Shown here: positions 5,280 through 51,969 of the stretch, one piece after another
Layout of the letters: every line of letters begins with the position of its first letter
Numbering within the stretch: position 1 is the stretch's first letter
Source of the DNA: Candidatus Thiodiazotropha sp. 'RUGA'
Lineage (GTDB): Bacteria; Pseudomonadota; Gammaproteobacteria; Chromatiales; Chromatiaceae
Reading direction: 5' to 3'
Assembly (NCBI GenBank): GCA_016842065.1
Contig: JAEPDS010000014.1
Location: 12,132 to 76,131 of the forward strand
DNA length: 64,000 nucleotides
Program-made: the position numbers and the translations under genes
Notes under the pieces: model-generated
What the model was told of the DNA's origin: nothing
What the model saw: only the letters and a program-made list of their open reading frames with translations
Database searches by the model: none

Positions 5280-5290
5280 TTAATCCATGC

Positions 5291-5388
5291 TAGGGCCTGT
5301 TAACACTAATCCAATTGTCCCTGCTGGGTCTATTTTTTTGTCCAGCAAGGCACAACAGGGCCAATTGGATTAGTGTTAACAGGCCCTA
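5291..5388. mobile_element. 98-bp TA-flanked MITE-like element (internally deleted copy)
   Basis: Perfect 26-bp inverted repeat TAGGGCCTGTTAACACTAATCCAATT (5291-5316 / 5363-5388), extending to about 33 bp with one mismatch. Interior matches both ends of the element at 7666-7952. Confidence 0.85.
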
Positions 5389-10766: not shown

Positions 10767-11576
10767 TCAGGCAACCCGTTTGATGTGCTGAATCAGTCTC
10801 GCTGAGATCTCCTCGATCGACATGGAGGTGGTCTCGAGATAGGGGATGTTGTAGTGCTTGAACAGGCCCTCAGCCAGTTTGACCTCCATTTTACACTGTT
10901 CAAGAGAGGAGTAGCGCCGGTCCGGGCGTCTCTCCTGGCGGATACGCTGCAGTTGATGTGGGTCGATGGTCAGACCGTACAGCTTATCCTTGTACTTGGC
11001 GAGGGTCTTCGGCAGCAGGTCGCTGTGCAGATCGTCATCAGTGAGTGGGTAGTTGGCAGCCAGGACGCTGTGCTGCAGGCCCAAAAAGAGGCAGGTCGGG
11101 GTTTTGCCGCTGCGCGAGACGCCAACCAGAATCAGGTCGGCTGTCTCATAGTTCTTGGTAATCGCACCATCGTCATTGTTGAGAGCGAAATTGACCGCGT
11201 GGATACGCTGGTCATAGGCGCGACCGTTCTTGGTGGTATGGAACTGTCCCAGGGCATGGGAGGAGGGAAGACCCAGCTCCTCTTCCAGGCGGGTGGTGAA
11301 GGTTTCGAAGAAATCCATCACCGGAACATCCAGGGTTTTGAAGTAGTCGCGGATCGAGGGATCCACCAGGGTGGTGAAGACGATCGGTTTCTGTCCCGAC
11401 TCGATGGTCGTGTGGTTGATCCGCTCAGCCACCCGGCGGGCCTTGTCCAGACTGTCTATGAAAGGCCAATGCACGGTCTCATACTCAAAACCGTCGAACT
11501 GACTCAGCAGTGAGCGCCCCATCGCTTCGACAGTGATACCGGTATGGTCGGCCAGGAAATAGACAGTACGTTTCAT
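10767..11576 (-). CDS. ppsR: PEP synthase regulatory protein (kinase/pyrophosphorylase)
   Basis: DHTGIT, NDDG and LVGVSRSGKTPT motifs; adjacent to ppsA. Confidence 0.95.
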   Translation of the reverse strand: MKRTVYFLADHTGITVEAMGRSLLSQFDGFEYETVHWPFIDSLDKARRVAERINHTTIESGQKPIVFTTLVDPSIRDYFKTLDVPVMDFFETFTTRLEEELGLPSSHALGQFHTTKNGRAYDQRIHAVNFALNNDDGAITKNYETADLILVGVSRSGKTPTCLFLGLQHSVLAANYPLTDDDLHSDLLPKTLAKYKDKLYGLTIDPHQLQRIRQERRPDRRYSSLEQCKMEVKLAEGLFKHYNIPYLETTSMSIEEISARLIQHIKRVA

Positions 11577-11646: not shown

Positions 11647-14058
11647 CTAGTCACTCAAGCCGGTCAACAGCCTCCAGGTATCGACAACCGTGTCAGGATT
11701 CAGGGAAATACTGGCAATCTTCTGCTCCACCAGCCATTCCGCAAGGTCGGGATAGTCAGACGGCCCCTGGCCGCAGATACCGACATACTTACCCGCCTTG
11801 TTACAGGCCTGTATTGCCATGCTGAGCATCCGCTTGACCGCCGGGTTGCGCTCATCGAAGCTGCCGGCAACCAGTCCGGAATCCCGATCGAGTCCCAGGG
11901 TCAGCTGGGTCATGTCGTTGGAGCCGATGGAGAAGCCGTCGAAGTACTCCAGGAACTCTTCCGCCAGCACCGCATTGGAAGGCAGTTCGCACATCATGAT
12001 GACACGCAGGTCGTTTTCACCCCGTTTCAGACCATTCTGTTCCAGCAGGCTGATCACGCCAGAGGCTTCATCCAGGGTACGCACAAAGGGGATCATGATC
12101 TCCACATTGCTGAAGCCCATCTCTTCGCGAACCCGTTTCAGGGCGCGACACTCCAGCTCGAAGCAGGGTCTGAAGCTCTCGGAGATATAGCGCGAAGCAC
12201 CACGGAAACCGATCATCGGATTCTCTTCTGAGGGCTCATAGAGCTTGCCACCGATCAGGTTGGCGTACTCATTCGACTTGAAGTCGGACATGCGTACGAT
12301 GACCGGCTTGCCCTCGAATGCGGCTGCCAGGGTGGAGATGCCTTCCACCAGCTTCTCCACATAGAACTCCACCGGATCGTCGTAGCCGTTCATCTGGCTC
12401 TGTGCGGCCGCCTTGATATCCTCAGGCAGTTTGTCGAACTCCATCAGAGCGCGCGGATGGACACCGATGGTGGTGTTGATGATGAACTCCAGCCGGGCCA
12501 GACCGATACCCCCATTGGGAATTCGGCTGAAGGCGAAGGCGCGACTTGGATTGGCCACATTCATCATGATCTTGGCCGGTGCTTCCGGCAGACTGGTGAC
12601 ATCGCCCTGGGTGACTGAGTATTTCAGCAGGCCCTCATAGATGAAGCCGTCATCCCCTTCCGCACAGGAGACCGTAACCTCCTGGCCTTCCTGAAGTTTT
12701 TCCGTCGCATCATGACAGCCGACCACTGCGGGGATGCCCAGCTCGCGGGCGATGATCGCCGCATGGCAGGTGCGACCGCCCCGGTTGGTGACGATCGCCG
12801 ACGCTTTTTTCATTACCGGTTCCCAGTCAGGATCGGTCATATCGGTGATCAGCACATCACCGGCTTCCACTTTGGCCATCTCACTGGCATCCGCAATCAC
12901 CTTGGCGACGCCGCTGCCGATACGCTGACCGATGGCGCGACCCTGAGCCAGCACTTTAGCGTCACTCTGTTCCAACTTGAAACGCTCGACGGAGGCGGTG
13001 TCGACCCGGCTCTCAACAGTTTCCGGGCGTGCCTGCAGGATGTAGAGCTGGCCGTCGGTACCGTCCAGACCCCATTCGATGTCCATCGGACGCTGGTAGT
13101 GCTTCTCGATGGTGATCGCCATCTGGGCCAGACTCTCGACCTGCTCGCTGGTGAGCGAGAAACTGGTTTGATCCTGTGGTTCCACATCGACCGTCTTGAC
13201 CCGCTCCTCACCTTCCTGGCCATAGACCATCTTGATCGCCTTGCTGCCCAGGTTGCGGCGCAGAATAGCGGGTCTGCCGGCTTCCACATTGCCTTTGTGC
13301 ACATAGAATTCATCGGGATTGACGGCACCTTGTACCACCGTTTCACCCAGGCCGTATGAGCTGGTGATGAATACCGCATCCTTGAAACCGGATTCGGTGT
13401 CGAGGGTGAACATGACCCCGGCTGAGCCGACGTCGGAGCGCACCATCCGTTGGATGCCTGCAGAGAGTGCCACATCCTCATGGGCGAATCCCTGGTGAAC
13501 GCGATAGGAGATGGCCCGGTCGTTGTACAGAGAGGCGAATACCTCTTTGATCGCGATCATTACGTCATCCAGACCCTGTACGTTGAGAAAGGTCTCCTGC
13601 TGTCCGGCAAAGGAGGCGTCGGGCAGGTCTTCAGCAGTCGCAGAGGAGCGCACCGCGACAGAGGGAACCTCCTCAGCATCACCCACCAGCTTCTTGTAGG
13701 CCGCGGTGACAGCATTCTCCAGCTCTTCCGGAAACTCCGCTTCGACCACCCATTCACGCACTGTCTTGCCCGCTTCCGCCAGTGCCGTGACATCGCTCAC
13801 ATCGAGCTGCTGCAACAGCGGGTCGATTCGCTCCGCAAGGCGGTTGTGTTGCAGAAACTCACGATAGGCATGGGCTGTGGTGGCAAAGCCACCGGGAACG
13901 GAGACGCCGGCATCGGCAAGACCGCTGATCATCTCACCAAGAGATGCGTTCTTGCCGCCGACCTGATCGACATCATGCATTTTCAGGTTTTCAAACCAGA
14001 TTATTTGTTCATTCACCGCTTGCCCTCGGCTTGTGGATTGATTGGATGGATCAGTCAT
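11647..14058 (-). CDS. ppsA: Phosphoenolpyruvate synthase
   Basis: [36 protein letters not shown] (phospho-His) and [15 protein letters not shown]. Start moved to ATG 14058 because the longer ORF runs through the upstream small gene. Confidence 0.97.
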
Positions 14059-14062
14059 TGTT

Positions 14063-14260
14063 TTAACCTCTGAGGTGGTCTCCTTGACGTTGGCAGCTGT
14101 TTCCGCTGCACAGACAGCTTTTACCACAGCCTGTGCCCTCTTCCTTATGAGGACCTAACTCAGGATGCAGTTTAGAAAAGCGTCGGGTGATGGACTGGAC
14201 GATCAACCAGCCCAACAACAGAATCGGTATCACGGTCATGGCGATGAGATAGTCGAGCAT
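14063..14260 (-). CDS. 65-aa single-TM protein with a C-terminal C-x3-C-x-C-x4-C motif (NqrM/FeoB-associated-like architecture)
   Basis: GGAGG RBS; start 4 nt after the rnfA stop; stop 4 nt before the ppsA start. Sequence [22 protein letters not shown]...[13 protein letters not shown]. Confidence 0.8.
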
Positions 14261-14264
14261 CGAA

Positions 14265-14855
14265 TCAACCTCCAAGTCCGGCAAAGCCCATGAACGAGAG
14301 TGAAAGCAGACCACCCAGCATCAGACTCACGGCGGCACCCTGGGTGATGCTCGGCATGGTCGAAAGCTCAAGCTTCTCGCGCAGACCGGCCATCAGCAGG
14401 ATCGCCAGGATAAAACCGACTCCGGCACCCAGTGCATAGACCAGGGATTGCAGGAAACTGTACTCCTTGAATGTCTGGAACAGGGCCAGACCGAGGATCG
14501 CACAGTTGGTGGTGATCAACGGCAGAAAGATGCCCAATGAGCGAAACAGGGCAGGGCTGAATTTTTTCAGGGTCATCTCCACCAATTGTACGGCACTGGC
14601 GATCACCGCGATATAGGCGATCAGGCGCAGGAATTCGATCTCAAAGGCGACCAGCACCTCATTGATCAGAAACGCACAGACTGAACTGACCAGCATTACG
14701 AACAGGGTTGCCAGGCCCATTGGTACGGCGGTATTGATCTTTCCCGAGACACCGAGGAACGGGCACAGGCCGAGAAACAGGGCAAGTACAAAGTTGTTTG
14801 CCAGTACCGCGTTGAGAAAGATAAAGCTTAGGGTTTCTGTCGCCATCGTGGTCAC
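14265..14855 (-). CDS. rnfA: Rnf electron transport complex subunit A
   Basis: NNFVLALFLGLCPFLGVS and FLPLITTNCAILG. Confidence 0.95.
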   Translation of the reverse strand: MTTMATETLSFIFLNAVLANNFVLALFLGLCPFLGVSGKINTAVPMGLATLFVMLVSSVCAFLINEVLVAFEIEFLRLIAYIAVIASAVQLVEMTLKKFSPALFRSLGIFLPLITTNCAILGLALFQTFKEYSFLQSLVYALGAGVGFILAILLMAGLREKLELSTMPSITQGAAVSLMLGGLLSLSFMGFAGLGG

Positions 14856-14931: not shown

Positions 14932-15576
14932 TCATGATTCTGCCGCCGGATTCAGTTCAGTCTCGGATTTGCGCTGCTTCAGCCACTCGAACAGCAGCAG
15001 CCAGGCACCCAGTACGAGAAAGCCGCCGGCGGGCAGTACCATCACCACCCAGGGTTCGAATCTGGGGCCGAACAGATCAATGCCGAACAGGCTGCCGGCA
15101 CCGAGGATTTCGCGCACCACGCCAAGGCAGAGCAGGGCCAGGGTAAATCCCAGCCCCATGCCGGTGGCGTTGACGATCGACTTCAACGGCGGATTCCTGG
15201 AAGAGTAGGCCTCGGCCCGGCCCAGTATCATGCAGTTGGCTACGATCAGCTGGATGAAGGCACCCAGTGCATTGTAGAGATCCAGGGAGATCGCCTGGAT
15301 GGTGTAGTCGACAATGGTGACGAAGGTGGCGATGATGACGATGTAGGTGGCGATGCGCACCTGCTTGGGAATGCTGTTGCGCAGCAGCGAGATCAAAGTG
15401 CCTGAGGCGAGCAGTACGAAAAGTGTCGCAATACCCATCGCCAGGGCATTGATTGCCGAGTTGGTCACTGCCAGTACCGGGCACATGCCCAGCAGCATGA
15501 CAAACACAGGATTCTCACGCCACAAACCTTCACTGAAGGTATCCCAGGTGATGGTGTTGTCTTGTTTTTTCGCCAT
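14932..15576 (-). CDS. rnfE: Rnf subunit E
   Basis: ENPVFVMLLGMCPVLAVT, IPKQVRI and LIVANCMILGRAEAY. Confidence 0.95.
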   Translation of the reverse strand: MAKKQDNTITWDTFSEGLWRENPVFVMLLGMCPVLAVTNSAINALAMGIATLFVLLASGTLISLLRNSIPKQVRIATYIVIIATFVTIVDYTIQAISLDLYNALGAFIQLIVANCMILGRAEAYSSRNPPLKSIVNATGMGLGFTLALLCLGVVREILGAGSLFGIDLFGPRFEPWVVMVLPAGGFLVLGAWLLLFEWLKQRKSETELNPAAES

Positions 15577-15660: not shown

Positions 15661-16389
15661 TCACTGCGTCCCGCTGTCCGGCGTTTCAGGTTCGCTTGGC
15701 GGCGGTGGCGCATTGCGGATCACATCAATGTGTGGCATCAACTGGGGCAGTAGTTGCTGAGTGGATTGATTCAGCGCCTTGCCCACCGCTTTTGCGGAGA
15801 TGGTCGCGCCGGATATGGCGTCAATCTCCCAAGGGTTCTGTTTGGTGCCCGCTTTGACGGTCACAATCTCATTGGCCAGTGCGTCGCCGCCCGCATTCAG
15901 CTTTGCCTCCAGTGCATCGAAGTTGGCGACAAAGTTGGCATCGGTGATGATTTTGTCACCCAGCCCCGGGGTTTCTGCCAGCTTGAGCACTTTGATCCCA
16001 CGGACGCATTCACAATCGGGATCGTAGCCATACAGTAGGTGAATCATATCCGCATAGCCCTGAGCGCCGGCCTTGGCGGCAACACCATTCAGGTTGCCCT
16101 GTTGATCGTAACCCGCGTAGACCAGTACCCCCTCAGTGGGACCATCCGGGCTGACTGGCGTCACCGCCGATTCAGTGACCAGGAAATCACGTCGGGCAAC
16201 CGCACCCGGGATCACCTGAAACACCGCGGCCTCGATGGCACGCCGTTGGTTTTCTGCGATGATTGGTTTGGTCAGCTGGTAGGTGAGTACCACCAGAAAA
16301 CCCGACAACATGGCAATTCCCATCAGGGTACGAATCATCGGGCCCGTCGGGGTGGACGGTTGGATGGCTTGAGCTTCCGGTGTACTCAT
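15661..16389 (-). CDS. rnfG: Rnf subunit G
   Basis: N-terminal TM, ETPGLGDKI, and the FMN-attachment motif DAISGATIS. Confidence 0.94.
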   Translation of the reverse strand: MSTPEAQAIQPSTPTGPMIRTLMGIAMLSGFLVVLTYQLTKPIIAENQRRAIEAAVFQVIPGAVARRDFLVTESAVTPVSPDGPTEGVLVYAGYDQQGNLNGVAAKAGAQGYADMIHLLYGYDPDCECVRGIKVLKLAETPGLGDKIITDANFVANFDALEAKLNAGGDALANEIVTVKAGTKQNPWEIDAISGATISAKAVGKALNQSTQQLLPQLMPHIDVIRNAPPPPSEPETPDSGTQ

Positions 16390-17432
16390 TTGCCCGCCCT
16401 CTGCTCGCCGAACACCCGGGGTTGGGTGATCTGATCAATCAACGGTGTGGCCGCATTGCCCAGCAGGATGGCATACATCACCCCTTCGGTCAGACCGCCG
16501 AAGAGTCGGATGATCACGGTGATTACACCAATCATCACGGCATAGATCACCACCCCGAGTGGGGTAACCGGTGAACCGACCATGTCACTGGCCATGAACC
16601 AGGCGCCAAGCATCAGGCCGCCGGAGAGTACCACGAACAGTGGGTCCGGATATTTGGCCGGATCGATCATGTAGAAGATACCGGCAGTCACTGCGGCGCT
16701 GAGCAGGACCAGTACCGGAATGCGCCAATCGAGCATCCGTCTTGCCGCCAGATAGAGACCTCCGGCCAGAATCAGCAGCGCGGAGGTTTCGCCGGCGGAA
16801 CCGGCAGTGGTACCGAGCAGCATATCCATGTGGTCGGTCACGACACCTTCAAACTTCTGCAGTGCCAGCGGGGTGGCGCCGGAAAAGGCATCCACGGTGA
16901 CTTCCGAGATCCAGTCGCCTACAGCGGGGGGTTGCAGGAATGGGGGCGTCAGTGTGGTGGGGATGAACTGGCTGAAGCGGCCATCGAAAAATGCCGGTGT
17001 CCAGGTGGTGATGGCAACCGGAAAGGCGGCTTGAACAAAGGCCCGTCCGATCAGTGCAGGATTCATGGCGTTCATGCCCAGTCCGCCGAACATCGCCTTG
17101 CCCAGCGCGACACCGACGAAGGCGGCAACCGCACCCATCCAGAGGGGGAAACCGGGCGGCAGGGTCATCGCCAGCAACAGGCCGGTGATGGTGGCGGACC
17201 AGTCTCCCAGGGAACTGGGCTTACCGCTCAGCGCATTGAACATACGCTCACTCAACAGGCAGGTCAGGGTGACGACCACCAGCAGTGCCAGTGCGCTGAT
17301 ACCGAATTGCCAGACAGTGAATGCACAGATCGGTAGCAGGGCGTAGACCACATTGCGCATGATGACGACCACATCCTCCCCGGCATGGGCATGAGGTGAG
17401 GTACGCAGTTCAATGGTGGGTTTTTTACTCAT
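16386..17432 (-). CDS. rnfD: Rnf subunit D
   Basis: SPHAH, FGGLGMN.MNPAL, the FMN motif DAFSGATPL, and GSAGETS. Confidence 0.95.
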   Translation of the reverse strand: MSKKPTIELRTSPHAHAGEDVVVIMRNVVYALLPICAFTVWQFGISALALLVVVTLTCLLSERMFNALSGKPSSLGDWSATITGLLLAMTLPPGFPLWMGAVAAFVGVALGKAMFGGLGMNAMNPALIGRAFVQAAFPVAITTWTPAFFDGRFSQFIPTTLTPPFLQPPAVGDWISEVTVDAFSGATPLALQKFEGVVTDHMDMLLGTTAGSAGETSALLILAGGLYLAARRMLDWRIPVLVLLSAAVTAGIFYMIDPAKYPDPLFVVLSGGLMLGAWFMASDMVGSPVTPLGVVIYAVMIGVITVIIRLFGGLTEGVMYAILLGNAATPLIDQITQPRVFGEQRAGK

Positions 17433-17468
17433 GTTTGTTTTTTCAGCTATACAACATAGGCCGGAGGG

Positions 17469-18809
17469 TTAGGCAGCCTGTTCCCGGTTGATCGCTTTGG
17501 CGATCCGAAAATACTGCACCAGGGGAATATTCGAGGGGCAGACATAGGAGCAGCAGCCACACTCGAAACAGTCGGTCAGGTGATACTCTTCGGCCATCTC
17601 CTCATATTTACGCTTCGCTGCCAGTTGTCCAAGCATCGAGGGATTGAGATGCATGGGGCAGGCACTGACACAACGGGCACAGCGGATACAGGGCCAGATT
17701 TTGTGGCTCTCTTCCTCGATGGAGGGTTCATTCAGGACCAGTAGTCCGGAGGTGCCCTTGGTAATCGGGGTATCCAGGGCGGAGACGGCAGGCCCCATCA
17801 TCGGACCACCCAGTATAAACTCAGTACGAGCACCCTCATAACCCACATAATCGAGAATATATCGGATCGGGGTACCCAGTGGCACCAGGTAGTTGGCCGG
17901 CTTGGCGATGCCGGGCCCTGCGACGGTGATCACCCGTTCGATCAACCCCCGTCCTTTGGGCAGCAGATCCCCCAGACCGGCCAGGGTGCCCACATTATTG
18001 ACCACTACGCCCACATCGGCGGGCAGACCGCCTGTGGGTACCTCCCGATCGAGGGCCGATTTGATCAGCATCTTTTCAGAGCCTTGAGGGTACTTGGTCT
18101 CTACTGCTTTGACCTCCACCGGGCTGCCTTTGGATAGATGGCTCTTAAGCAGCTCCACCGCGTCCATTTTATTGTCTTCGATACCGATGATCGCCTTTTC
18201 CGTACCGGTGGCGCGCATCGCGTAACGAATGCCACGCAACAGAGCTTTGGGGTGTTCCAGCATGATCCTGTGGTCACAGGTCAGGTAGGGCTCACATTCG
18301 CAACCGTTGACGATCAGGGTATCGACCTGTTTGTCTGGCGGTATCGAGAGCTTCATATGGGAGGGGAAGGCGGCGCCGCCGAGTCCCACCATGCCGCTGT
18401 CCTGGATTGCCTGGATGATCTCTTGCGGGGAGAGTTCACTCATCTCCCGCGGCTGTTCCCAAAGCACCTCTTGTGTCGAGCCTTCATAGACATCGATGAG
18501 GATCGCATTGGTCTTCGGGCCCTTCGGAGTCGGCATCAGTTCGATGCCGGCGATTCGGCCAGTAGCCGGGGCATGCAGAGGCACTGAAAAGTTTCCGTCC
18601 GCTTTGGCAATCGGTTCACCCCGAACCACCTCCTGGCCTTTGACAACCAGAGGTATCGCCGGTTTGCCGATATGCTGGTCCAGCGGCAACACCAGTTGCG
18701 GGGGGAAGGGAAGACGGCGGATCGGTTTATCCGCCGTATCCTTGTGATAGGGTGGATGGATGCCGTGTGTAAAGCCTTTCTGCCCAAACAGCAGGTTGAA
18801 CAATCCCAT
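17469..18809 (-). CDS. rnfC: Rnf subunit C (short form without C-terminal repeats)
   Basis: GMVGLGGAAFP, NGCECEPYLTCD, YPQGSEK, GGPMMG, CIRCARCVSACP and CFECGCCSYVCP. Confidence 0.96.
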   Translation of the reverse strand: MGLFNLLFGQKGFTHGIHPPYHKDTADKPIRRLPFPPQLVLPLDQHIGKPAIPLVVKGQEVVRGEPIAKADGNFSVPLHAPATGRIAGIELMPTPKGPKTNAILIDVYEGSTQEVLWEQPREMSELSPQEIIQAIQDSGMVGLGGAAFPSHMKLSIPPDKQVDTLIVNGCECEPYLTCDHRIMLEHPKALLRGIRYAMRATGTEKAIIGIEDNKMDAVELLKSHLSKGSPVEVKAVETKYPQGSEKMLIKSALDREVPTGGLPADVGVVVNNVGTLAGLGDLLPKGRGLIERVITVAGPGIAKPANYLVPLGTPIRYILDYVGYEGARTEFILGGPMMGPAVSALDTPITKGTSGLLVLNEPSIEEESHKIWPCIRCARCVSACPMHLNPSMLGQLAAKRKYEEMAEEYHLTDCFECGCCSYVCPSNIPLVQYFRIAKAINREQAA

Positions 18810-18935
18810 AGTCTCTCTGATCTCGTTTAACCTTGAGTTCGCAATTGAACACGGTGTTGTGGGAAATCCATTATCGGGTTTGCCATAACAGAATCCATGC
18901 GCCGGATAGTAGCCACCAATTGCAGAATCGAGATT

Positions 18936-19003
18936 TAACAGGCGGAGCCGAAGCTCCGCACACTGTTAGCCAAATCGACCATCCTGGCTGTGCCGGATGG
19001 TCG
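18936..19003 (-). promoter_or_regulatory. Tandem hairpins directly 3' of the PFOR gene
   Basis: On the transcribed strand, a GCGGAGC stem closes a cUUCGg tetraloop (18942-18959). A second 9-bp stem lies at 18976-19003. Confidence 0.6.
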
Positions 19004-19011
19004 CCGTGGGT

Positions 19012-22000
19012 TTACTGAAATTTCGCTGCACGTTTGACAAACTTTTCCAGGTCTTTTTCAGTAGCGTTCCAAGGTGTTCCCGGATGGATGCAGGCCGCCG
19101 TGCACTTCTCGGCAGCCTTCACAATATCCTTGAACTGACCACCCTTGGGATCGGTGATAATCGCTTTCTTCTCGTCGTTGTAGGCGAAAATTTTCGGATT
19201 GATCTCGATACACTCATCACAGGCTGTACATTCCGGGGTTTCGATCCATACCGGCTCGTAGTCCTCTGCGGCAGCGCCGTTACTTCCCGCCGCAGCGGCA
19301 GAGCCATTGCTGCCATTGGCAGAGATGGAACCTGCCAGGGCGTCCGCGTTACCGCTGGCCGCCATGGAGAGCAGGGTGGAGCTGAGGCGGTTGGCCATAT
19401 CGACCTTGGCCTGATCGACCAGGGCATCCACATCCACTTTGTTCATCTCGCCGGCGACACCTTTCAGTTGACGCCAGAACTGTCGGCGCTCTTCACAGGA
19501 TTTGGCGATCTCCTGCGCACAGATGATACGCATCAGGCGGTTCTTGCTGTCCACACCCCAGATGTAAGGGAATTTGCCTTCCCGGTCATCTTCATCCATC
19601 TCCAGGAACTCATCCATGGGGACCATGTCATCGTTCCAGGTCTCCGGAGGCGCCATGCGGAACTGCTTGCGGAAACGCCCTTCGGTGACGGCAAAATCGG
19701 CGAAGGTCATGGGTACTTCCAGTTTACGCGCTTCACCCTTGTCATCCTGGTAGTCGATGGTATAGGTAGGCCAGTCATCGTCCAGTGAAGGGTTGCCATC
19801 CAGATCGATACAATCCTCGATGGTCTCGCCCGCATCCGGATCGTACTTCATCAGCGGATAGGCTCTCGATTCCACAGCCATTTTTGACTGTCTGAACGCG
19901 ATGTCGTCGCCCACACCATGCTCCGGAGGACAGACCGCATAGATGTTGAACAGTGCCGGATGACGGCTGTTCAGGCCATCGATGTAACCTTCCAGCAGGT
20001 GGGTGGTGTTACTGATGGTGCCCTGCAGGACATAGGTTGTCCGATGGGCGATACCGATCAGGGAGACCTCTTTGCGAATCTCTTCCTTACCTTTCCAGGC
20101 TTTACCGTAAGGACTCATATCCGCAACCTGGCCGATGTAGCCGGAGGTACAGGCCTGGCCACCGGTGTTGGAGTAGACCTGGGTATCGAGTACCAGGACT
20201 TTCACCGGCATGCCGGAGGCGAGGACACGGGAGAGGTTCTGGAAACCGATGTCATACATCGCGCCATCACCACCGACCGATACGACCGGCGGACAGAGCA
20301 GCCACTCCTCTTCGCTGAACTGCTTCCAGTTGAACTGCTGGAAGAAGGCGCCGTGCTCGATCGCATTGTACTTGCCTGCCAGTTCCAGTTCCGCTTTACG
20401 AATGGTGGCGAAGCCGTTCGCCATCTTACGCATGTGACCTTCGAAAAGTCCCATCGCGACCGATGGGCTGTCCTGGAACAGGTGGCTGGCCCAGGGGAAC
20501 GGATAGGGGTTGAAGGGGTAAGTGGATCCCCACACTGAGGTACAGCCGGTGGCGTTGACAATACCCATCTCGGCGCGACCGTTGTTGGTCTCACCCTCGG
20601 TGTAACGCCATTTCAAATCTCTCAGTTCATCCAGCAATCGGGTTGCTGATTGCAGCCACTCACGATCGATGACCGTCTTCTCGTGATCGCTGTCCAGATT
20701 CTCGCTCAGCCCGGAGAGGGTCAGATCACTCTCTTCACTGCCGGACATCGCTTCCGAGATCGCTTTCGAGCTGCTCAGATCCACACCTTCGGCCAGTTTC
20801 AGTCGGATGTGCTGTTCCAGCTGTTCGATCAGTTTGTCAATCTTCTCGATCTGCTGTTTGACCCGGGGCTGCATCAACGCAGTGACGGTAGAGGTGAACA
20901 GATGGATGATGGTCTTCTCACCACAACCCAGGCAGGCGCCGTCACCGCAGGAGAGGGAGTTGTAGTTCTCCTTGTCCATCAGCAGGGTCTGCAGAGCGCC
21001 GATCTTTTCGTCCAGGTCGTCGATGCGGTTGAATGAAGGATCACTGGTTGGCAGGTCGAGCCAGAAGTTCCAGTCATCGCGCATACGCGTAATCGCGGCT
21101 TCGTCCTGATGGGTGGCGAGCAGTGCTTCGTCTTCACAGATGGTGACACACTCCATACAGCCCTTACAGGTGTAAGGGTTGACGGTAATGGAGAAGAGAC
21201 CACCACTGTTCTTGCTCTTCTTCTCCATGTTGTTCCAGTAGGGCTTGGTGATGGAGAAATCGAACTCACCCATCGCCTGCAGGAATAGACCGAACTCCTC
21301 TTCCAGGGTAGCCCGTGCATCCTCTTCAATCTCGGCGGCCGCTATGGTCTCGAGTACCGCCTGATCCAGGACAGTCCGCACATTGGCCGCTTCGCCGGCC
21401 TCTTCGAGCAGTGCACGCAGACGTTTCTCCACGTTGCGGCTCTCTTTACGCAGGTATTGGGTCGGACGGCCAGCGGTTTCGATGCGGTTGATCGCGGTGG
21501 CGAAAACATCGCTGACCTTGTTGACCAGGCCGGGGATCGCGCTGTCGGGACAGATGGTGTAGCAGTCGCCACAGGCGGTACAGTTCTCCGCAACCCATTT
21601 CGGGTAGTCGAAACGGATCTGGGTCATGTCGCGGAAGACGCCGGTAGAGGCTGGAATCAGTGACAGAGCCTGATAGGGGTCGGCCAGATTCTCATTACCC
21701 TTGCCACTGGCGTAGAAGCTGCCGGTCTGTTCCCAGAAACGGTGTACATCGGAGATGCCGCCCTCTGCTTCAGGCAGTTGCTTGAGCATCACCGGCATGC
21801 CGATCTCTTTCTTCACCGGCAGCTGAGCGCTGCTGCCGATGGCTTTGTTGGTGATCTCGTGGATCTCATCGAAGCCGCGGCGTACAACCCGCAGGTTGTC
21901 CTCAACCACCCGGCGACCCTTGCTGCCGAATTTGGCGACAAGTTGACTCTCGATGGCGCTGAACAGTTTCTTCTCGTCCAGTCCCGCCATCTCCATCAGC

Positions 22001-23949
22001 GGAGAACCGGCAAAGAAGGCGCCTTGGAAGGCGTTACCCTGCATACGCAGCTGTAATTCGGCGTCGGAGGCCTCATCTTTGGCGATCTTGAAACCGTCCA
22101 GATAGAAGACATGGATCTCGTTGTCGATGATCTGCTGCTGCATCCAGCGGGGGAATGATTCCCATACCTCATCCGCCGAACCAAGGTCCGATTGGATGAT
22201 CAGGGTACCGCCCTGTTTCAGACCGGCCAGTGGATTGGAGTGACCGAACACGTTCGCGTCCGGGCTCAAGACCACATCCACATAGTGATACTCACAGTTC
22301 AGCGGAATCGGTGTCGGCGCCGCAGAGAGGTAGTAGGTGGTGGGTTGACCCTTCTTCTCCGAACCATATTTCGGATTCGCTTTGATCTCGTATCCGAGCA
22401 GATCATAGAGCGTCATGACCAGGTTCTTACCGGTGGTGATGGCGCCCCAGCCACCGACCGAGTGCATTCTTACGGTAATCGAGCCTTCCGGCATCAGATT
22501 CGGGTTTTCCGAACCGCGCAGCGCCATCTCGCCGATGTTCGGATAGGCTTCGAGCAGTTTCTGGATATGGATCTCCTGCTTGGGTGTGTCCGCATCGCGC
22601 ACGAAATCGATACCCAGGTAGAAGAACTTCCGCTGGCTGCCGTCAGGCAGCATATTCTCAACCGCAGCGATCAGTGCCTCAGGCTGCAGGTCACGGGAAC
22701 CCAGCCCATAGGCGCCGGAGTAGAGATGAGGGGCATCGGCAAAGCTGCTGTAGCAGTCATACTTTGCATAGGGCCGTGCCAGTTTGCCCGCTTTAGCCTG
22801 ACCGTTTTCAATACACTTGGAGACCACCGAGCGGACTTCTCGCATCAGCGGCAGGTCTTCCGCAAGCGGCTGGTCGGTACGCTCCAGTACGCAGACACCC
22901 TTTTTACCTTTCAGGATCTGACCCAACTGGTCACCCGGGAAGGGGCGGAACATGGTGATGTCGACCACACCGATCTTCAGTTTGCGGGTCTTCTCCAGAT
23001 AGTCGGCCAGGCCATGGGCCTGAACAATCATCGAACCCATGCCGACGATCAGGTAGTCGGCTTTCTCAGTGTTATAGGTGCCGATGCGGTTGTAACGACG
23101 CCCGGTAAGTTCATAGAACTCATCCATCGCCTTGTCAGCAATTTCCGGGATGTGCTGGAAGAAATAGGGCCTCTGTGCAGCGGTAGTCTGCATATAGGCA
23201 TCCTGGTTCTGCACCGAGCCTGAGAGCATGGGGTTGTCCACATCCCAGATCGCCGGTACCCGGCGACGGGTCTCACCGAACAGCAGCTTCTGTGCCGGGG
23301 TGGGGCATTCGATCTCATCATCCGGACGACCCAGATACTCAGCGATCAGCTCCCGTTCAGGCACCTGCAGCGGTTCGATCAGATGGGTGGTCAGAAATCC
23401 GTCCTGGGCAACCGCAGCCGGAGTCAGCGACATTTCGGCGATCTTGCGGCCGATCAGGTTCAGATCGGCGGCACCCTGGGCGTTGTTGGCGAAGACCTGG
23501 AAAAAGCCGGTATCGTCAATACAGTGGAAATCGTCATGGCCGCAATGCACGTTGAGTGAGGCCTTGGTGATCGCGCGACAGCCGATGTTCAGCACATAGG
23601 GGAGGCGTTTGCCCACTGCCGCATAGAGGGATTCATGCATGAATGCAATACCCTGGGCAGAGGAGAAGTTGGTGGCACGCAAGCCTGTCATGGACATACC
23701 GGCGGTAACCGCTGCAGCCGCGTGCTCCGACTCCGGTTCGATAAAGATCAGTGACCGATCAGAAACATTGACATGCCCTTTGGCGGTCTCTTCGGCCCAA
23801 TATTCACCCATTTGGGTGGATGGGGTGATGGGATATGCACCAGCGGCGTCAGAGGCTTCCCTCTCACACATAATGACTGCCCCGTTACCGTCCATTGCCA
23901 TACGGATACCAGGGTATTTGAAGCTCTTCTCTTCTTTCTTACCGAACAT
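19012..23949 (-). CDS. por: Giant single-chain pyruvate:ferredoxin (2-oxoacid:acceptor) oxidoreductase, NifJ/Por type, with an extra C-terminal ferredoxin domain
   Basis: AYPITPSTQMGE; GGWGAITTGKN; CTACGDCYTICP and CKGCMECVTIC; GACLGCGEK; GGDGAMYDIG...LDTQVYSNTGGQ (TPP binding); C-terminal CTACDECI...KCTAACIH. Confidence 0.93.
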   Translation of the reverse strand: MFGKKEEKSFKYPGIRMAMDGNGAVIMCEREASDAAGAYPITPSTQMGEYWAEETAKGHVNVSDRSLIFIEPESEHAAAAVTAGMSMTGLRATNFSSAQGIAFMHESLYAAVGKRLPYVLNIGCRAITKASLNVHCGHDDFHCIDDTGFFQVFANNAQGAADLNLIGRKIAEMSLTPAAVAQDGFLTTHLIEPLQVPERELIAEYLGRPDDEIECPTPAQKLLFGETRRRVPAIWDVDNPMLSGSVQNQDAYMQTTAAQRPYFFQHIPEIADKAMDEFYELTGRRYNRIGTYNTEKADYLIVGMGSMIVQAHGLADYLEKTRKLKIGVVDITMFRPFPGDQLGQILKGKKGVCVLERTDQPLAEDLPLMREVRSVVSKCIENGQAKAGKLARPYAKYDCYSSFADAPHLYSGAYGLGSRDLQPEALIAAVENMLPDGSQRKFFYLGIDFVRDADTPKQEIHIQKLLEAYPNIGEMALRGSENPNLMPEGSITVRMHSVGGWGAITTGKNLVMTLYDLLGYEIKANPKYGSEKKGQPTTYYLSAAPTPIPLNCEYHYVDVVLSPDANVFGHSNPLAGLKQGGTLIIQSDLGSADEVWESFPRWMQQQIIDNEIHVFYLDGFKIAKDEASDAELQLRMQGNAFQGAFFAGSPLMEMAGLDEKKLFSAIESQLVAKFGSKGRRVVEDNLRVVRRGFDEIHEITNKAIGSSAQLPVKKEIGMPVMLKQLPEAEGGISDVHRFWEQTGSFYASGKGNENLADPYQALSLIPASTGVFRDMTQIRFDYPKWVAENCTACGDCYTICPDSAIPGLVNKVSDVFATAINRIETAGRPTQYLRKESRNVEKRLRALLEEAGEAANVRTVLDQAVLETIAAAEIEEDARATLEEEFGLFLQAMGEFDFSITKPYWNNMEKKSKNSGGLFSITVNPYTCKGCMECVTICEDEALLATHQDEAAITRMRDDWNFWLDLPTSDPSFNRIDDLDEKIGALQTLLMDKENYNSLSCGDGACLGCGEKTIIHLFTSTVTALMQPRVKQQIEKIDKLIEQLEQHIRLKLAEGVDLSSSKAISEAMSGSEESDLTLSGLSENLDSDHEKTVIDREWLQSATRLLDELRDLKWRYTEGETNNGRAEMGIVNATGCTSVWGSTYPFNPYPFPWASHLFQDSPSVAMGLFEGHMRKMANGFATIRKAELELAGKYNAIEHGAFFQQFNWKQFSEEEWLLCPPVVSVGGDGAMYDIGFQNLSRVLASGMPVKVLVLDTQVYSNTGGQACTSGYIGQVADMSPYGKAWKGKEEIRKEVSLIGIAHRTTYVLQGTISNTTHLLEGYIDGLNSRHPALFNIYAVCPPEHGVGDDIAFRQSKMAVESRAYPLMKYDPDAGETIEDCIDLDGNPSLDDDWPTYTIDYQDDKGEARKLEVPMTFADFAVTEGRFRKQFRMAPPETWNDDMVPMDEFLEMDEDDREGKFPYIWGVDSKNRLMRIICAQEIAKSCEERRQFWRQLKGVAGEMNKVDVDALVDQAKVDMANRLSSTLLSMAASGNADALAGSISANGSNGSAAAAGSNGAAAEDYEPVWIETPECTACDECIEINPKIFAYNDEKKAIITDPKGGQFKDIVKAAEKCTAACIHPGTPWNATEKDLEKFVKRAAKFQ

Positions 23950-24055
23950 GGAAACTTCTCTTTGCTAGGTTTGCAATTTACTTTCTACCGCTATATCGAT
24001 GAGTATCTATATAGAGGAAACAGAAAGCATAGGCTTAAGGTTTTGACTGCCAACA

Positions 24056-24934
24056 TCAGAACGGCAGTGCTTCTTTACGTACTATGCGCTTGGCTTGTTG
24101 CCCTTTGATGACTCCCAGGGATTCATCAAGCCATACAATTGCCCCGGTCGGGCAGCGCTCAGTAGCAATAGGGGAGGCTAGACTAATCTTGTTATAGTCG
24201 ATTACAGCCAAATTGTCTTGAATACTAATCAATCCTTCCGGGGAGTCTTTGACACATCTTTCACAGGCGGTGCAGGCGACTTCGCAATCGTTTTCTGCAG
24301 TATCACCATGTTCCAGATTCTTACAGGCCACCCACAAGCGATGGGCAGCGTCCTGAATTGAGAACAGATCCTTGGGACAGATATCGACGCAATCGCCACA
24401 AGCGGTGCATTTTGCGTTGTCCACGATGGGTAATCCGTTGTGGTCCATGGTGATCGCATCGAACTCACACACATCCGCGCAATCGGCCAGACCGATGCAG
24501 CCCCAGGTACAGCTCTTCGGGCCGCCGGAGACGACGGCGGCTGCACGGCAGCTCTCCAAACCTTTATAATGGGCGCGCATACGGGCGACATGATTGCCAC
24601 CGGCGCAGGCCAGACGAGCTACCCGTTTCGCCACATCACCACTCTCCACGCCCAGGTAGTCGGCGATCTCCTCGATCGCATCGGCGTTGCTGACGGTACA
24701 TTGAGCGGGAGTGACCTCGCCGGAGATCAGTGCCTCGGCGAAGGGACGGCATCCGGCACTGCCACAGGCACCACAATTGGTGGCGGGCAACATGCCTTCC
24801 AGGTCATCGATTCGGGGGTCTTCAAATACCCAGAGCTTTTTGTTGGCGAATACCAGCATGGACGAGAGTAGCAGGCCAAGAATGCCCATAAAAAGGATAG
24901 CGGTCGTGACGTTAAGTGCGATCTCAATATCCAT
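24056..24934 (-). CDS. rnfB: Rnf subunit B
   Basis: N-terminal TM, LPATNCGACGSAGC, CTWGCIGLADCADVC, CTACGDCVDICP and CTACERC. ATG 24934 preferred over TTG 24940. Confidence 0.94.
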   Translation of the reverse strand: MDIEIALNVTTAILFMGILGLLLSSMLVFANKKLWVFEDPRIDDLEGMLPATNCGACGSAGCRPFAEALISGEVTPAQCTVSNADAIEEIADYLGVESGDVAKRVARLACAGGNHVARMRAHYKGLESCRAAAVVSGGPKSCTWGCIGLADCADVCEFDAITMDHNGLPIVDNAKCTACGDCVDICPKDLFSIQDAAHRLWVACKNLEHGDTAENDCEVACTACERCVKDSPEGLISIQDNLAVIDYNKISLASPIATERCPTGAIVWLDESLGVIKGQQAKRIVRKEALPF

Positions 24935-24958
24935 TTCCAATACCCGATGTCATGCCTG

Positions 24959-24991
24959 TGAAACCTAACTGAAACCCTTTAGAAACCTTAC
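24959..24991 (-). promoter_or_regulatory. Three direct repeats at 11-bp period upstream of rnfB
   Basis: GAAACC begins at 24960, 24971 and 24982 (TGAAACCTAAC TGAAACCCTTT AGAAACCTTAC). Confidence 0.6.
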
Positions 24992-25314
24992 ATAGTTTAA
25001 TGTTGGGGCTAGTATTGGTCTATGGAATGGGTTAAATAGAAAGTATTAATATATCTAAATACTTCAATAGCATTTAAAAAATTAATGAGTACATAAGTGC
25101 TCTGATCGATTGATACCAATCCCTACACTCAACTCTATACCCAAGGCATAGGATTTCAACCATGCTGGCCTATCAGAAAAAGTATCGGCGGGGTGGGCTG
25201 AAATTTAACCTGAAAAAAGTGGTGTTATAGCATCTTTCAGCTGTTTTTCAGGTGCCCATTCCGTCTGTTGGTCTGAGTGTGCTGGTGATTGGGACGGTGA
25301 GTTGCGCCGCTGAC

Positions 25315-28900: not shown

Positions 28901-29186
28901 GCTGCTCTCAGCATGGGTTTAGAAAAGAGTATTCTGTAGACCGTACAAATACTCGCTCAAGTTGTGGCTCGCTGACAAGAGTAATCTACCCAAGGAGAAC
29001 AACAACCGACAGCAAGCCAAGTCAACAATTCCCTTTGTCCCTAAGAAAATCATGTTATATCATCATCTTATGAAATTGAGTTCCAGCGGAATGAAATTCA
29101 TGAGGTGTAACAGCATTGGATCGCTGACTTCTGGGTGGATGATTCACCCTTGATTCTAATAAAAATGGTTGAAGCGATCCTGTCCA

Positions 29187-32100
29187 ATGAAACGTATCGA
29201 CATCTTTCCCTGGGACGATAATTTCAATACCGGTCTTCCCACGATTGATGAACAGCACCGCCAATTGGTGCTGATGTTGAACGAACTGGCATCCCAGTTT
29301 GCGTTCGAATCGGAGCAGATCGACCTCAGCAAAGTGTTTGATGGGCTGTTGGAGTACACGGTCTACCACTTCGAGACAGAAGAGGCTGTCTGGCGTAAAT
29401 ATCTGCCGGATGAATCTTTGGAGGCGAGTCACCGGAATTCCCATCAGGCCTTTATCGATGAGCTGCAGACGCTGATCAGTCAGAAGGAGCAGGGCTCCAA
29501 ACATCGGGCTGCTGAACAGACCCTGGAATTTCTGGTTCGCTGGCTGGCTTCCCACATTCTTGAGTCCGATCGACATCTCTCCTATATCGTTTTAGGCCTG
29601 CGGCAGGGCCTTGCGCTGGAAGAGGCCAAGCACTACGCACTCGAAGAGATGAGTGGGTTTACCCGCAAGATGATCGATATCATTCTCTCCAGCTACGGGA
29701 TTCTCTCCAGCAACACATTGCGCCTGATGCAGGAGCTGGTGCAGCAGAAACAACTGGAGACAAAACTGCTGCGTCAAAGCGGATTTCTTAAAGTTCTGAT
29801 ACAGACCCTGCCTGATCTGATCTGGTTGAAGGATCCGGATGGGATCTATTTGGCCTGCAATCCAAGGTATGAGGATTATTTTGGTGCTGCAGAGGATGAA
29901 ATCCTGGGGAAATCAGCTATCGATTTCATGCCGGCGGATAAGGCGGCATCCTATCGTGAACATGATCTGAAAGTTATCGAACAGGGTGGTCCGAAGGTCT
30001 ATGAAGAGTGGGTCAGTTTTGCGGACGATCATCGTGAACTGCTGGAGACCACCAAGACACCGATGTATGACGAACAGGGGAACCTGATTGGAATCCTTGG
30101 GATTGGACACGATATTACTGAGCGTCGAGAGAGTGAAGACCAATTGCGTCAGGCCGCCAGCGTTTTCGCCTCAGCCCGTGAGGGGATCATGATCACCGAT
30201 CCTGATGGCACCATTCTGGATGTCAACAGTGCTTTCAGTCGAATTACCGATTACAGCCGCGACGAGGTGCTCGGCAAGAATCCCAGGCTGCTGGCTTCCG
30301 GGCGTCATGACACAGCTTTCTACGCAGGATTGTGGCAGGAGTTGCTGAAGCACGGGCACTGGTCAGGGGAGATCTGGAACCGGCGAAAGAACGGTGAGGT
30401 CTACGCTGAAATGCTGACCATCAGCAATGTCTACGATGAGCAGGGCAGCCTCAAATACTATGTGGGACTCTTCTCCGACATCACACCACTCAAAGAGCAG
30501 CAGAGAAAACTGGAGCGGATTGCCCACTACGATGTGCTGACCGGTCTGCCGAACCGGGTTTTGTTGGCTGATCGGCTCTATCAGGCAATGCTTCAGGCAC
30601 AACGGCGCAACACGCTGGTGGGTATCGTCTATCTGGATCTGGATGGCTTCAAGCAGATCAATGATGCTCATGGTCACGATGTGGGGGATCTGTTTCTGAT
30701 TCAGCTTGCGGAGCGCATGAAACACGCCTTACGAGAAGGCGACACCCTGTCTCGTCTGGGTGGGGATGAGTTTGTCGCGGTGCTGATGGACCTTGTGGAT
30801 CATGCCGCGAGTGTCAATATTATTGAGCGGTTGATGGCATCGGCAGCAGAACCGATACATATCAAAGGTATGGAGCTGAAAGTCTCGGCCAGTCTTGGTG
30901 TGACCTTCTTTCCTCAGGCAGAACTGCTCGATGCGGATCAACTGCTGCGACAGGCGGACCAGGCCATGTATCAGGCCAAGCAGGCAGGCAAGAATCGCTA
31001 TCATATCTTCGACGCTGAACATGACCGGACGGTGCGTGGCTATCATGAGAGCCTGGAACGGATTCGCATTGCCCTGAAAAGTGGTGAGATGGTGCTCTAC
31101 TATCAACCCAAGGTGAATATGCAGAGCGGTAGCGTTTTGGGTATGGAGGCACTGATTCGCTGGCAGCATCCACAACGAGGATTGCTGTTACCCGGTGCCT
31201 TCATGTCGGTCATAGAGCAGCATCCGTTTTCTGTCGAGCTGGGGGAGTGGGTGCTGGATACCGCACTCGCACAGATCGCTGAGTGGCGACGGGCCGGGGT
31301 ACCTTTGCAGGTCAGTGTGAACATCGATGCCATGCATCTGCAACAACCCAATTTTGTCACCCGACTGCGTTATCTGCTGGCAAAACATCCCAATGTAAAG
31401 CCCGGCGATCTGGAACTCGAGGTGTTGGAGACCAGTGCTCTGGATGAGATCGATCAGGTCTCTGAAATCATTCGTGATTGTCGTAACCTGGGTGTTGGTT
31501 TTGCGCTGGATGATTTTGGCACCGGTTACTCCTCTCTGACCTATCTGAAACGATTACCAGCCGGGCTGCTCAAGATCGATCAGAGTTTTGTGCGGGATAT
31601 GCTGGATGACCCGGATGATCTGGCAATACTGGAGGGTGTGCTCGGCCTGGCATCCGCCTTCAGTCGCAACGCCATCGCCGAAGGGGTTGAAACCCTGGCG
31701 CACGGTGAGATGCTGCTGAAACTGGGATGTCAGTATGGGCAGGGATACGCAATCGCCCGACCCATGCCATCGGAGGAGGTTCTGCAGTGGCTAAGCGATT
31801 GGCAACCAGATCAGCTTTGGAGTGAGACAGTCCGACTCAGCCGGGACGATCAACCCTTGCTGTTTGCTGCGGTAGAACATCGGGCCTGGATCGCTCACCT
31901 GTTGCAGTATGCGCAAGGTGAGAAGCTGGCACCACCGGTTTTGGATAGACATCAGTGCCGATTTGGTCAATGGCTGGATGGGCAAGCCAAGACCCGATTG
32001 GCCGATTCTCCAATGTTGCAAAAGATCATTTCAATTCACGAATCGATTCATGACTCGGCCGAGCAGCTTGTCAATCAAAAGATCGGTGTCGAGGTGAAGG

Positions 32101-34031: not shown

Positions 34032-34292
34032 TGTTTTGGTGCGTCGTTTTTTCGTTTGGTCGTTATATCTGAGCGATTAAGTAAGGTTTAGCAGATTTTT
34101 ATTGCGGTGCACTATTTTTTTTGTCAAAGCTAACTATTGAGATTTTTTTGAAAATAATGTTGACCTTTTCACTATGCTTTAACGCAGTGCACAAAAAGTC
34201 GAACACGCCTCAGAGAATGGCAGTGCGATTTTTCAGCCGTTACGACCGCACCAAGCAAGTGCGCGGCGAAGAATATGAGGAGATTGAAAATT

Positions 34293-51940: not shown

Positions 51941-51969
51941 CAACATTACCCAACTGTCGAGGAAAAGTA

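Follow-up and report, generated by a model that had tools for sequence, protein, structure and literature searches.

A single-cluster ferredoxin module joined by a variable linker to a long pyruvate:ferredoxin oxidoreductase-like protein encoded within an rnf operon of Candidatus Thiodiazotropha

INTRODUCTION

Pyruvate synthase requires electrons near -500 mV. Monocluster ferredoxins of the Desulfovibrio africanus ferredoxin I type are the diffusible acceptors of pyruvate:ferredoxin oxidoreductase (PFOR, or POR) in their own organisms, and in the pyruvate:NADP+ oxidoreductase (PNO) of Euglena and Cryptosporidium an electron acceptor module is fused C-terminally to PFOR itself. In the Solemya velum symbiont, PFOR genes were found between rnfB2 and rnfC2 and pyruvate was proposed as the electron donor (Dmytrenko et al., 2014; PMC4287430); the passages of that paper on Rnf and ferredoxin oxidoreductases consider the oxidative direction only and make no mention of a fused ferredoxin. 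Papers on Endoriftia place Rnf near reductive tricarboxylic acid (rTCA) cycle genes and mention a 'PFOR-like' gene. In this study we analysed a stretch of 64,000 nucleotides (the window) from Candidatus Thiodiazotropha sp. 'RUGA' (contig JAEPDS010000014.1, positions 12,132 to 76,131), in which a long PFOR-like gene within an rnf operon encodes a ferredoxin (Fd) module at the C-terminus of the enzyme.

The location of PFOR between rnfB and rnfC has been known since 2014; the ferredoxin fusion, which is real and widespread, is apparently undescribed. Public domain databases already tag PF13370 on these long PFORs, and no description or interpretation of a PFOR-ferredoxin fusion was found in searches of an open-access corpus, which misses many subscription-journal papers. 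The practical question behind the locus is how organisms that are not strict anaerobes supply electrons of -500 mV without losing them to oxygen. It concerns lucinid, tubeworm and Solemya symbionts, Sedimenticola, Thiothrix and the purple sulfur bacteria.

RESULTS

The PFOR chain ends in a single-cluster ferredoxin module

At 99% sequence identity, the window derives from Ca. Thiodiazotropha taylori or a very close relative. The gene for a long PFOR-like 2-oxoacid:ferredoxin oxidoreductase (OFOR), assigned by Pfam and NCBIfam, occupies 19012..23949 on the (-) strand of the window as an open reading frame (ORF) of 4938 nt that encodes 1645 residues. The C-terminus of the protein reads ...LLSM-AASGNADALAGSISANGSNGSAAAAGSNGAAAEDY-EPVWIETPECTACDECIEINPKIFAYNDEKKAIITDPKGGQFKDIVKAAEKCTAACIHPGTPWNATEKDLEKFVKRAAKFQ and is followed by the stop codon. 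A first-pass annotation of this DNA had described here a low-complexity linker leading to an ~80-residue domain with a CTACDEC...C pattern, and both were found where it had placed them. When the last 142 residues were searched against Pfam, PF13370 (Fer4_13, '4Fe-4S single cluster domain of Ferredoxin I') was matched at 33.8 bits (E 5.5e-8), compared to a gathering score of 24.5 bits, and the score was 28.2 bits with the whole PFOR as query. The domain search therefore agreed with the annotation that the PFOR C-terminus is a single-cluster ferredoxin of ~80 residues. The top PDB sequence match of the domain was D. africanus ferredoxin I (1DAX/1FXR, E 5e-8). From the Fer4_13 and 1DAX matches and an AlphaFold2 (AF2) model, residues 1566-1645 (19015..19254, (-) strand) were assigned to a monocluster [4Fe-4S] ferredoxin domain with a basic C-terminal helix.

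Conservation and cysteine counts were taken over 98 distinct full-length relatives. The Fd-domain ligands C1574, C1577, C1580 and C1616 were invariant in 98/98 of them, and also in alignments of fragments, so that the CxxCxxC...C part of the annotated pattern stands. Its C(TAAC) part was narrowed down, as Cys1616, the first Cys of CTAAC, provides the fourth ligand, whereas the second (Cys1620) was kept in only 87 of the 98 and is Val or Ala in Ectothiorhodospira. The basic tail of the domain is conserved as PGTPWNxxEKDxxKLxKRAxKFQ, and conservation of the Fd domain (0.74-0.87) is on par with that of the catalytic core.

In the AF2 model of the last 142 residues (102 sequences), a helix with predicted local distance difference test (pLDDT) values >90 was followed by ~30 residues near 50 and then by the 80-residue domain at 92-96. 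The top Foldseek match of the predicted domain was 1FXR (TM-score 0.85, root mean square deviation 0.8 Å, 58 columns, 33% identity). The next matches, 1FXD, 2Z8Q and 1VJW, are free carrier ferredoxins (Desulfovibrio gigas FdII, Pyrococcus furiosus Fd and Thermotoga maritima Fd, respectively). By these profile matches and the predicted fold, the last ~80 residues of the PFOR are a single-[4Fe-4S] ferredoxin module, a match far beyond chance, and the module is expected to bind its cluster.

A role other than electron carriage was considered for this module, namely that of a structural, regulatory or O2-protective cap, or of a gate on activity formed by a [3Fe-4S] or redox-sensing cluster. The C-terminal extension of D. 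africanus PFOR (domain VII) is protective, the hosts of the long PFOR are microaerophiles or facultative anaerobes, and a fifth cysteine, Cys1620, is conserved in most relatives (87/98). However, the domain has the full ferredoxin fold with four invariant CxxCxxC...C ligands, as is typical of low-potential [4Fe-4S] carriers, and the fifth cysteine is dispensable in Ectothiorhodospira. We regard a non-carrier role as very improbable.

The ferredoxin is joined to the enzyme by a variable linker

The linker had been thought to come right after the thiamine pyrophosphate (TPP) domain, but ~150 conserved residues (~1380-1528), including three predicted helices, intervene. AF2 placed helices in the region of the C-terminal extension at 1478-1498, 1506-1531 and 1535-1542. 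The helical extension itself (residues ~1440-1528; 19366..19632, (-) strand), delimited by its conservation (0.64-0.78), carries the motif EERRxFWRQLKxxAG and anchors the tether; it was also found in relatives that lack the Fd domain. The linker proper (residues 1529-1565; 19255..19365, (-) strand) was defined by composition, conservation and AF2. It is composed of Ala (30%), Gly (21%), Ser (10%) and Asn (7%) with Lys, Arg and aromatic residues nearly absent, and is Ala/Pro-rich in Ectothiorhodospira. Its length ranges from 22 to 64 residues (median 36) among the 98 relatives. The linker varies even inside the genus, and conservation along the PFOR reaches its minimum here (0.49, with gaps). 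The linker had a pLDDT of ~30-50 in two models and is predicted to be disordered.

When residues 1130-1645 were modelled together, the predicted TM-score was 0.57 and the pLDDT of the Fd was 57-77, so that placement of the Fd relative to the core was of low confidence, which weakly favours the absence of a fixed docking site. A Gaussian-chain estimate gave ~2-19 mM as the effective concentration of the tethered Fd (a model figure), and by the same estimate a tether of ~36 residues would reach roughly 40-130 Å from the PFOR. The Fd might instead be permanently docked on the PFOR dimer as a fixed fourth cluster that lengthens the wire toward RnfB, with a linker that merely spans the distance. 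Consistent with this, the Fd surface and the basic C-terminal helix are highly conserved, Fd-like modules are fixed in all known OFORs, e.g. PorD and domain V (NCBIfam matches), and the Fd-less relatives described below show that the core can meet RnfB alone. In contrast, a linker that is unconserved and varies threefold in length is atypical of a fixed-geometry connector, the low-confidence AF2 placement speaks against a docked Fd as well, and the closest relatives of the Fd are soluble carriers rather than embedded domains. We therefore consider permanent docking unlikely. In the reading that we prefer, to which we assign a probability of roughly 0.55, the Fd domain is a built-in, tethered electron carrier that is kept at high local concentration between domain V of the PFOR and RnfB.

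The enzyme core belongs to a sister family of NifJ

The complete domain set of homodimeric PFORs was found on the one chain in canonical order, as judged by Pfam and by alignment to 6CIN and 1B0P. Pfam placed POR_N at residues 32-263, PFOR_II at 297-378, POR at 499-694, TPP_enzyme_C at 1221-1283 and Fer4_13 at 1572-1622, and its Fe-S motifs at 783-805 and 913-939 correspond to a split 2x[4Fe-4S] domain V. The structures nearest to the core are the PFORs of Moorella thermoacetica (6CIN) and D. africanus (1B0P). On the NifJ equivalog TIGR02176 the protein scored 400.6 bits in three stretches, under the cut-off of 911.35, and by this measure of its sequence it is a member of a divergent sister family and not NifJ proper. 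The pyruvate-binding residues are Thr31, Arg114 and Asn996 in D. africanus PFOR numbering; the Thr of YPITP and the equivalent of Arg114 are kept in the 6CIN alignment.

The PFOR aligned with 6CIN in four blocks, leaving over insertions of ~100 and ~110 residues and ~200 additional C-terminal residues. The two cluster motifs of domain V, recognized in the sequence and in the 6CIN alignment, are C790-x2-C793-x2-C796-x3-C800-P (CTACGDCYTICP; 21547..21582, (-) strand) and C928-x2-C931-x2-C934-x3-C938 (CKGCMECVTICE; 21133..21168, (-) strand). The family-specific insertion of ~100 residues between them (residues ~815-913; 21211..21507, (-) strand) is a gap in the 6CIN alignment, where the query advances from 815 to 913 while the 6CIN chain advances from 711 to 726. 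Its conservation is 0.63-0.74, and with a composition rich in Glu, Ala, Leu and Arg it is probably helical. The second family-specific insertion is found where the TPP domain begins (residues ~1020-1128; 20566..20892, (-) strand), with the query running from 1020 to 1128 compared to 823 to 829 in the 6CIN chain, and has a conservation of 0.56-0.80. Both insertions are candidates for the surface at which Rnf docks. On the long PFOR, Pfam matched no flavodoxin, FAD or NAD-binding domain.

The PFOR gene is embedded in an rnf operon with a clostridial-type RnfB

The genes are arranged on one strand in the order rnfB, PFOR, rnfC, rnfD, rnfG, rnfE, rnfA, a small ORF with a transmembrane segment and a Cys-rich tail, ppsA and PSRP. 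All six Rnf subunits (RnfA-E and RnfG) were identified by Pfam, as encoded on the (-) strand by rnfB (24056..24940), rnfC (17469-18809), rnfD (16386-17432), rnfG (15661-16389), rnfE (14932-15576) and rnfA (14265-14855), with rnfC and rnfA also over their NCBIfam cut-offs. Pfam likewise identified ppsA, for phosphoenolpyruvate (PEP) synthase (11647-14127, (-) strand), and PSRP, the ppsA regulatory kinase/pyrophosphorylase (10767-11576, (-) strand).

In RnfB, a protein of 294 residues, an N-terminal transmembrane helix is combined with a PF04060 cluster, a domain with 2x[4Fe-4S] and a terminal domain that resembles ferredoxin. It matched RnfB of Acetobacterium woodii (9ERI, E 1e-52) and, over its full length, of Clostridium tetanomorphum (7ZC6, E 1.5e-48), compared to only E 5e-11 for Azotobacter vinelandii (8AHX). 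On NCBIfam it scored under the equivalog cut-offs of the PRK07118 subtypes and over that of TIGR01944. By sequence comparison this RnfB is of the clostridial, ferredoxin-dependent type. Twenty cysteines were invariant in 105 RnfBs of the family. In the terminal domain (residues 219-270), cluster I is kept (C223, C226, C229 and C263), whereas all four ligands of cluster II were lost relative to C. tetanomorphum RnfB in 105/105, and they are lost too in the systems whose PFOR lacks the Fd or ends in a coiled coil. The terminal domain with a single cluster thus accompanies every type of long PFOR and does not co-vary with the Fd domain. The idea that the PFOR-borne Fd compensates for the outer cluster lost from RnfB was rejected on this ground.

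The first-pass annotation had also remarked that no free ferredoxin or flavodoxin gene lies in the cluster, and Cys-motif and Pfam scans extended this to the whole window. The only real ORFs returned by a CxxCxxC search of the 64 kb were RnfB, RnfC and PFOR, and no flavodoxin or ferredoxin Pfam match was obtained on the other scanned window ORFs of >=150 residues; smaller ORFs were covered by Cys motif only, which a small [2Fe-2S] ferredoxin would escape.

Metatranscriptome contigs from relatives that are 95-99% identical covered rnfD, rnfC, the gap and the 3' end of PFOR (16966-20061), and the 5' end of PFOR and rnfB (20099-25095). They bridge the PFOR-rnfC and rnfB-PFOR junctions without an indel in the linker. 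The cluster is transcribed in symbiont metatranscriptomes; carry-over of DNA in the libraries is possible. A terminator in the PFOR-rnfC gap was considered and rejected, as a consensus scan found none and the RNA contigs run through the gap.

The Fd-bearing PFOR is widespread and syntenic

Loci were sampled through the PFOR protein (63 loci) and through the ferredoxin-domain motif (the best 80 of at least 594). Across the species-representative genome collection, at least ~590 loci retain the Fd domain. Its hosts range across Gamma- and Betaproteobacteria and Hydrogenedentota and include Sedimenticolaceae, tubeworm and lucinid symbionts, Chromatiaceae, Ectothiorhodospira, Thiothrix, Thiohalomonadaceae, Rhodocyclales, Acidithiobacillales and others. 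Cultured hosts of the family include Sedimenticola selenatireducens DSM 17993, Marichromatium gracile DSM 203 and Ectothiorhodospira spp. The arrangement rnfB-PFOR(Fd)-rnfCDGEA on one strand was present in all loci with enough flanking sequence (~140), except for L064 and L107; in the latter, rnfC lies 5.4 kb from PFOR. Moreover, ppsA and PSRP follow rnfA in most loci of Sedimenticolaceae, Thiohalomonadaceae and tubeworm symbionts.

Some loci showed additional features. In L040, a second PFOR homologue of canonical length with 35% identity (1764-5561) lies ~3.5 kb upstream of rnfB, and in L141 and L145 rnfC is tandemly duplicated downstream of PFOR. Locus L064 has genes for sucrose synthase and sucrose-phosphatase 3' of PFOR and oxaloacetate decarboxylase Na+ pump genes upstream.

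Long PFORs without the ferredoxin keep the same operon

An exhaustive, profile-free search with residues 446-1645 recovered further long PFORs of 1420-1780 residues with 26-49% identity to the query, identities in the superfamily overall being 26-99%. Their C-termini were of three kinds: a ferredoxin, no ferredoxin (a helical extension or a linker stump), or a coiled coil. The ferredoxin endings share IHPGTP...KRAxKF. Genomic context was read for five distant members, P0246, P0275, P0283, P0263 and P0244. The Fd-bearing P0263 and P0244 are encoded in rnfB-PFOR-rnfCDGEA clusters with genes of a korAB-type oxidoreductase alongside. These korAB-type genes, for a two-subunit 2-oxoacid:ferredoxin oxidoreductase, lie at 17238-20093 in L152 and at 1987-4871 in L153.

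Several of these findings weigh against a tethered carrier as the link between PFOR and Rnf. The gene of the Fd-less P0246 has rnfB before it and rnfC 8 nt past its stop codon, that of the Fd-less P0275 lies between sequences for the RnfB C-terminus and the RnfC N-terminus, and that of the coiled-coil P0283 is likewise flanked by rnfB and rnfC. Embedding in rnf therefore belongs to the whole superfamily, and coupling to Rnf is not dependent on a tethered Fd. In a rough midpoint-rooted neighbour-joining tree, which is not a robust phylogeny, Fd-bearing and Fd-less branches interleaved, and because linker stumps remain as well, the sequences suggest that the Fd domain was lost several times independently. 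In locus L064 (GCA_942491615.1), rnfB and PFOR stay together although no rnfC follows, and the two appear to form the most tightly linked pair. Furthermore, pyruvate is only the presumed substrate of the long PFOR, which scores far under the NifJ cut-off although the Thr and Arg are retained. As the operon is unchanged in relatives without the Fd, the Fd is best seen as an optional accessory that would speed or insulate the exchange between PFOR and Rnf and would not create it.

The first-pass annotation had proposed a swinging-arm shuttle between RnfB and the PFOR clusters that would channel low-potential electrons and limit their leakage to O2, and had named as a check whether the domain and rnf linkage occur together among long PFORs. 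The ferredoxin module, the hypervariable linker, the embedding between rnfB and rnfC and the lack of another ferredoxin or flavodoxin nearby support this reading in part; the persistence of the embedding in members that lack the Fd weakens it. Co-occurrence proved to be no discriminator, as the two Fd-less PFORs and the coiled-coil PFOR are also flanked by rnfB and rnfC, and the Fd domain was discarded as a marker of rnf linkage on the same evidence.

The same data bear on the possibility that PFOR and RnfB exchange electrons directly through domain V and the insertions, with the Fd serving KorAB, nitrogenase, hydrogenase or transfer between protomers. It would account for an rnf embedding that is independent of the Fd domain, and korAB genes adjoin the cluster in distant Fd-bearing members. 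However, no other candidate partner is conserved nearby across the ~140 loci, and the estimated reach of the tether favours partners within the same assembly. An outlet of this kind seems to us improbable, more so than a permanently docked Fd.

Apparent free ferredoxins of 79 residues are artefacts

Many database proteins of 79-81 residues that begin with MW[IV]ETPEC... resemble the Fd domain. Wherever sequence exists upstream of such 79-residue ORFs, it continues the PFOR frame, either intact or interrupted by a frameshift or gap. A free-standing Fd domain, or a naturally split gene, was rejected as an artefact, since the linker sequence goes on upstream in the same frame and the apparent initiating Met is the GTG-Val of PVW. 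The false starts were caused by a frameshift (L064), scaffold gaps of 100 N (L066 and L068) and contig ends (L065 and L067). They arise because the GC-rich, low-complexity linker DNA causes frameshifts, gaps and contig breaks, after which gene callers restart at the GTG-Val. Many false 'ferredoxin' or 'PFOR' ORFs of 79-145 residues occur in public protein sets (loci L064-L068; proteins P0121-P0240). In practice, the linker breaks assemblies and gene calls and seeds databases with false ferredoxins.

Other genes of the window

The small conserved ORF 3' of rnfA (14063..14314, (-) strand) probably encodes 65 residues from an internal Met, with one transmembrane helix followed by a Cys-rich tail. 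No match to it was found in Pfam or NCBIfam. In most loci, as far as Betaproteobacteria, tblastn detected a homologue at this position, and the product may be an extra Rnf-associated subunit.

At 8-22 kb from the PFOR-Rnf-ppsA cluster lie the glyoxylate-shunt genes aceK (32265-34031, (-) strand), malate synthase (34275-35906, (+) strand) and isocitrate lyase (35953-37284, (+) strand), together with malate dehydrogenase (45950-46930, (-) strand). This region of the window is a hub of C2/C3 metabolism. A signalling protein of 1007 residues is encoded at 29169-32192 ((+) strand) and contains hemerythrin, two PAS, GGDEF, EAL and C-terminal chemoreceptor zinc-binding (CZB) domains; it may be an O2- or redox-responsive cyclic di-GMP enzyme. 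A complete-looking operon for phosphonate carbon-phosphorus lyase (phn) occupies 51209-61813 ((+) strand) and comprises a GntR regulator, the phnD/C/E transporter and phnH, I, J, K, L, M, N and P-like genes.

DISCUSSION

The mobility of the Fd, RnfB as its docking partner and the direction of electron flow are what we infer from the features described above. In the mechanism that we propose for the tethered carrier, the Fd would have two docking sites, the distal cluster of PFOR domain V and the single-cluster domain that ends RnfB, and would use them alternately or in series. NADH and the ion-motive force would push electrons through Rnf onto the tethered ferredoxin, and the PFOR would spend them on the reductive carboxylation of acetyl-CoA with CO2 to pyruvate, which the co-transcribed PEP synthase would then pull on to PEP. 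The reverse path, an energy-conserving anaerobic oxidation of pyruvate, would be chemically equally possible. The reductive direction is favoured because of the operon context, i.e. the clostridial Rnf, ppsA and PSRP, and korAB in distant members.

A further, more tentative proposal, in which we place distinctly less confidence than in the tethered carrier as such, is that the long PFOR is a stoichiometric, attached module of a dedicated Rnf, held by its helical insertions and C-terminal extension and in contact with the single-cluster domain of RnfB, with the Fd as a mobile swinging arm between RnfB and domain V. The membrane supercomplex would possibly act as an NADH:pyruvate synthase driven by the ion-motive force, or in reverse as an energy-conserving pyruvate:NAD+ oxidoreductase. 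If true, it would account for the synthesis of pyruvate from acetyl-CoA by microaerophilic sulfur oxidizers, purple sulfur bacteria and rTCA symbionts in the absence of a free low-potential ferredoxin pool.

As the operon joins a large PFOR, a tethered Fd, a ferredoxin-dependent Rnf and a PEP synthase, it offers a testable module for the carboxylation of acetyl-CoA driven by NADH and an ion gradient. The family is present in at least several hundred species, and its natural Fd-less and coiled-coil variants are ready controls. If the reading as a tethered carrier is right, the swinging-arm mechanisms would gain an uncommon kind of member, a mobile Fe-S carrier domain.

Compared with known systems, the Fd domain shares with D. 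africanus ferredoxin I and other monocluster ferredoxins the Fer4_13 family, the CxxCxxC...C ligands and the CxxxCIH ending. Unlike the free monocluster ferredoxins (58-66 residues), it is covalently tethered to the PFOR, is less acidic (core net charge ~-3), has Thr where they have Pro next to the fourth Cys, on its C-terminal side, and ends in an additional conserved basic helix. The enzyme resembles the homodimeric PFORs of the NifJ type (1B0P and 6CIN) in its domain order I-II-III-(IV)-V-VI, in the TPP motif GDG...NTGGQ and in the two cluster motifs of domain V. It differs in being ~450 residues longer, owing to insertions of ~100 residues in domain V and ~110 residues in domain VI, a helical C-terminal extension of ~100 residues, and the linker and Fd, and in being encoded within an rnf operon.

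As in PNO, a redox partner is fused to the PFOR C-terminus, known here from sequence. In the long PFOR, however, a ferredoxin takes the place of the flavodoxin/FNR-like NADPH-cytochrome P450 reductase of PNO, and coupling to NAD(H) would pass through the separate Rnf. With the swinging-arm carriers, i.e. the lipoyl domains of E2, BCCP, ACP and the Rieske head of bc1, it has in common a small cofactor domain on a variable Ala/Pro/Gly-rich linker, and as with the E2 lipoyl arms of the 2-oxoacid dehydrogenases the carrier is joined to an enzyme that converts 2-oxoacids. In contrast to the lipoyl, BCCP and ACP arms, it would carry electrons on an Fe-S cluster instead of a covalently bound substrate, and its movement between sites is a prediction. 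Finally, the CDGEA order is shared with clostridial Rnf (9ERI and 7ZC6) and with rnf2 of the Solemya velum symbiont (rnfBCDGEA), whereas, unlike in clostridial Rnf, rnfB stands in front, the PFOR gene lies between rnfB and rnfC, and the RnfB terminal domain has one cluster fewer.

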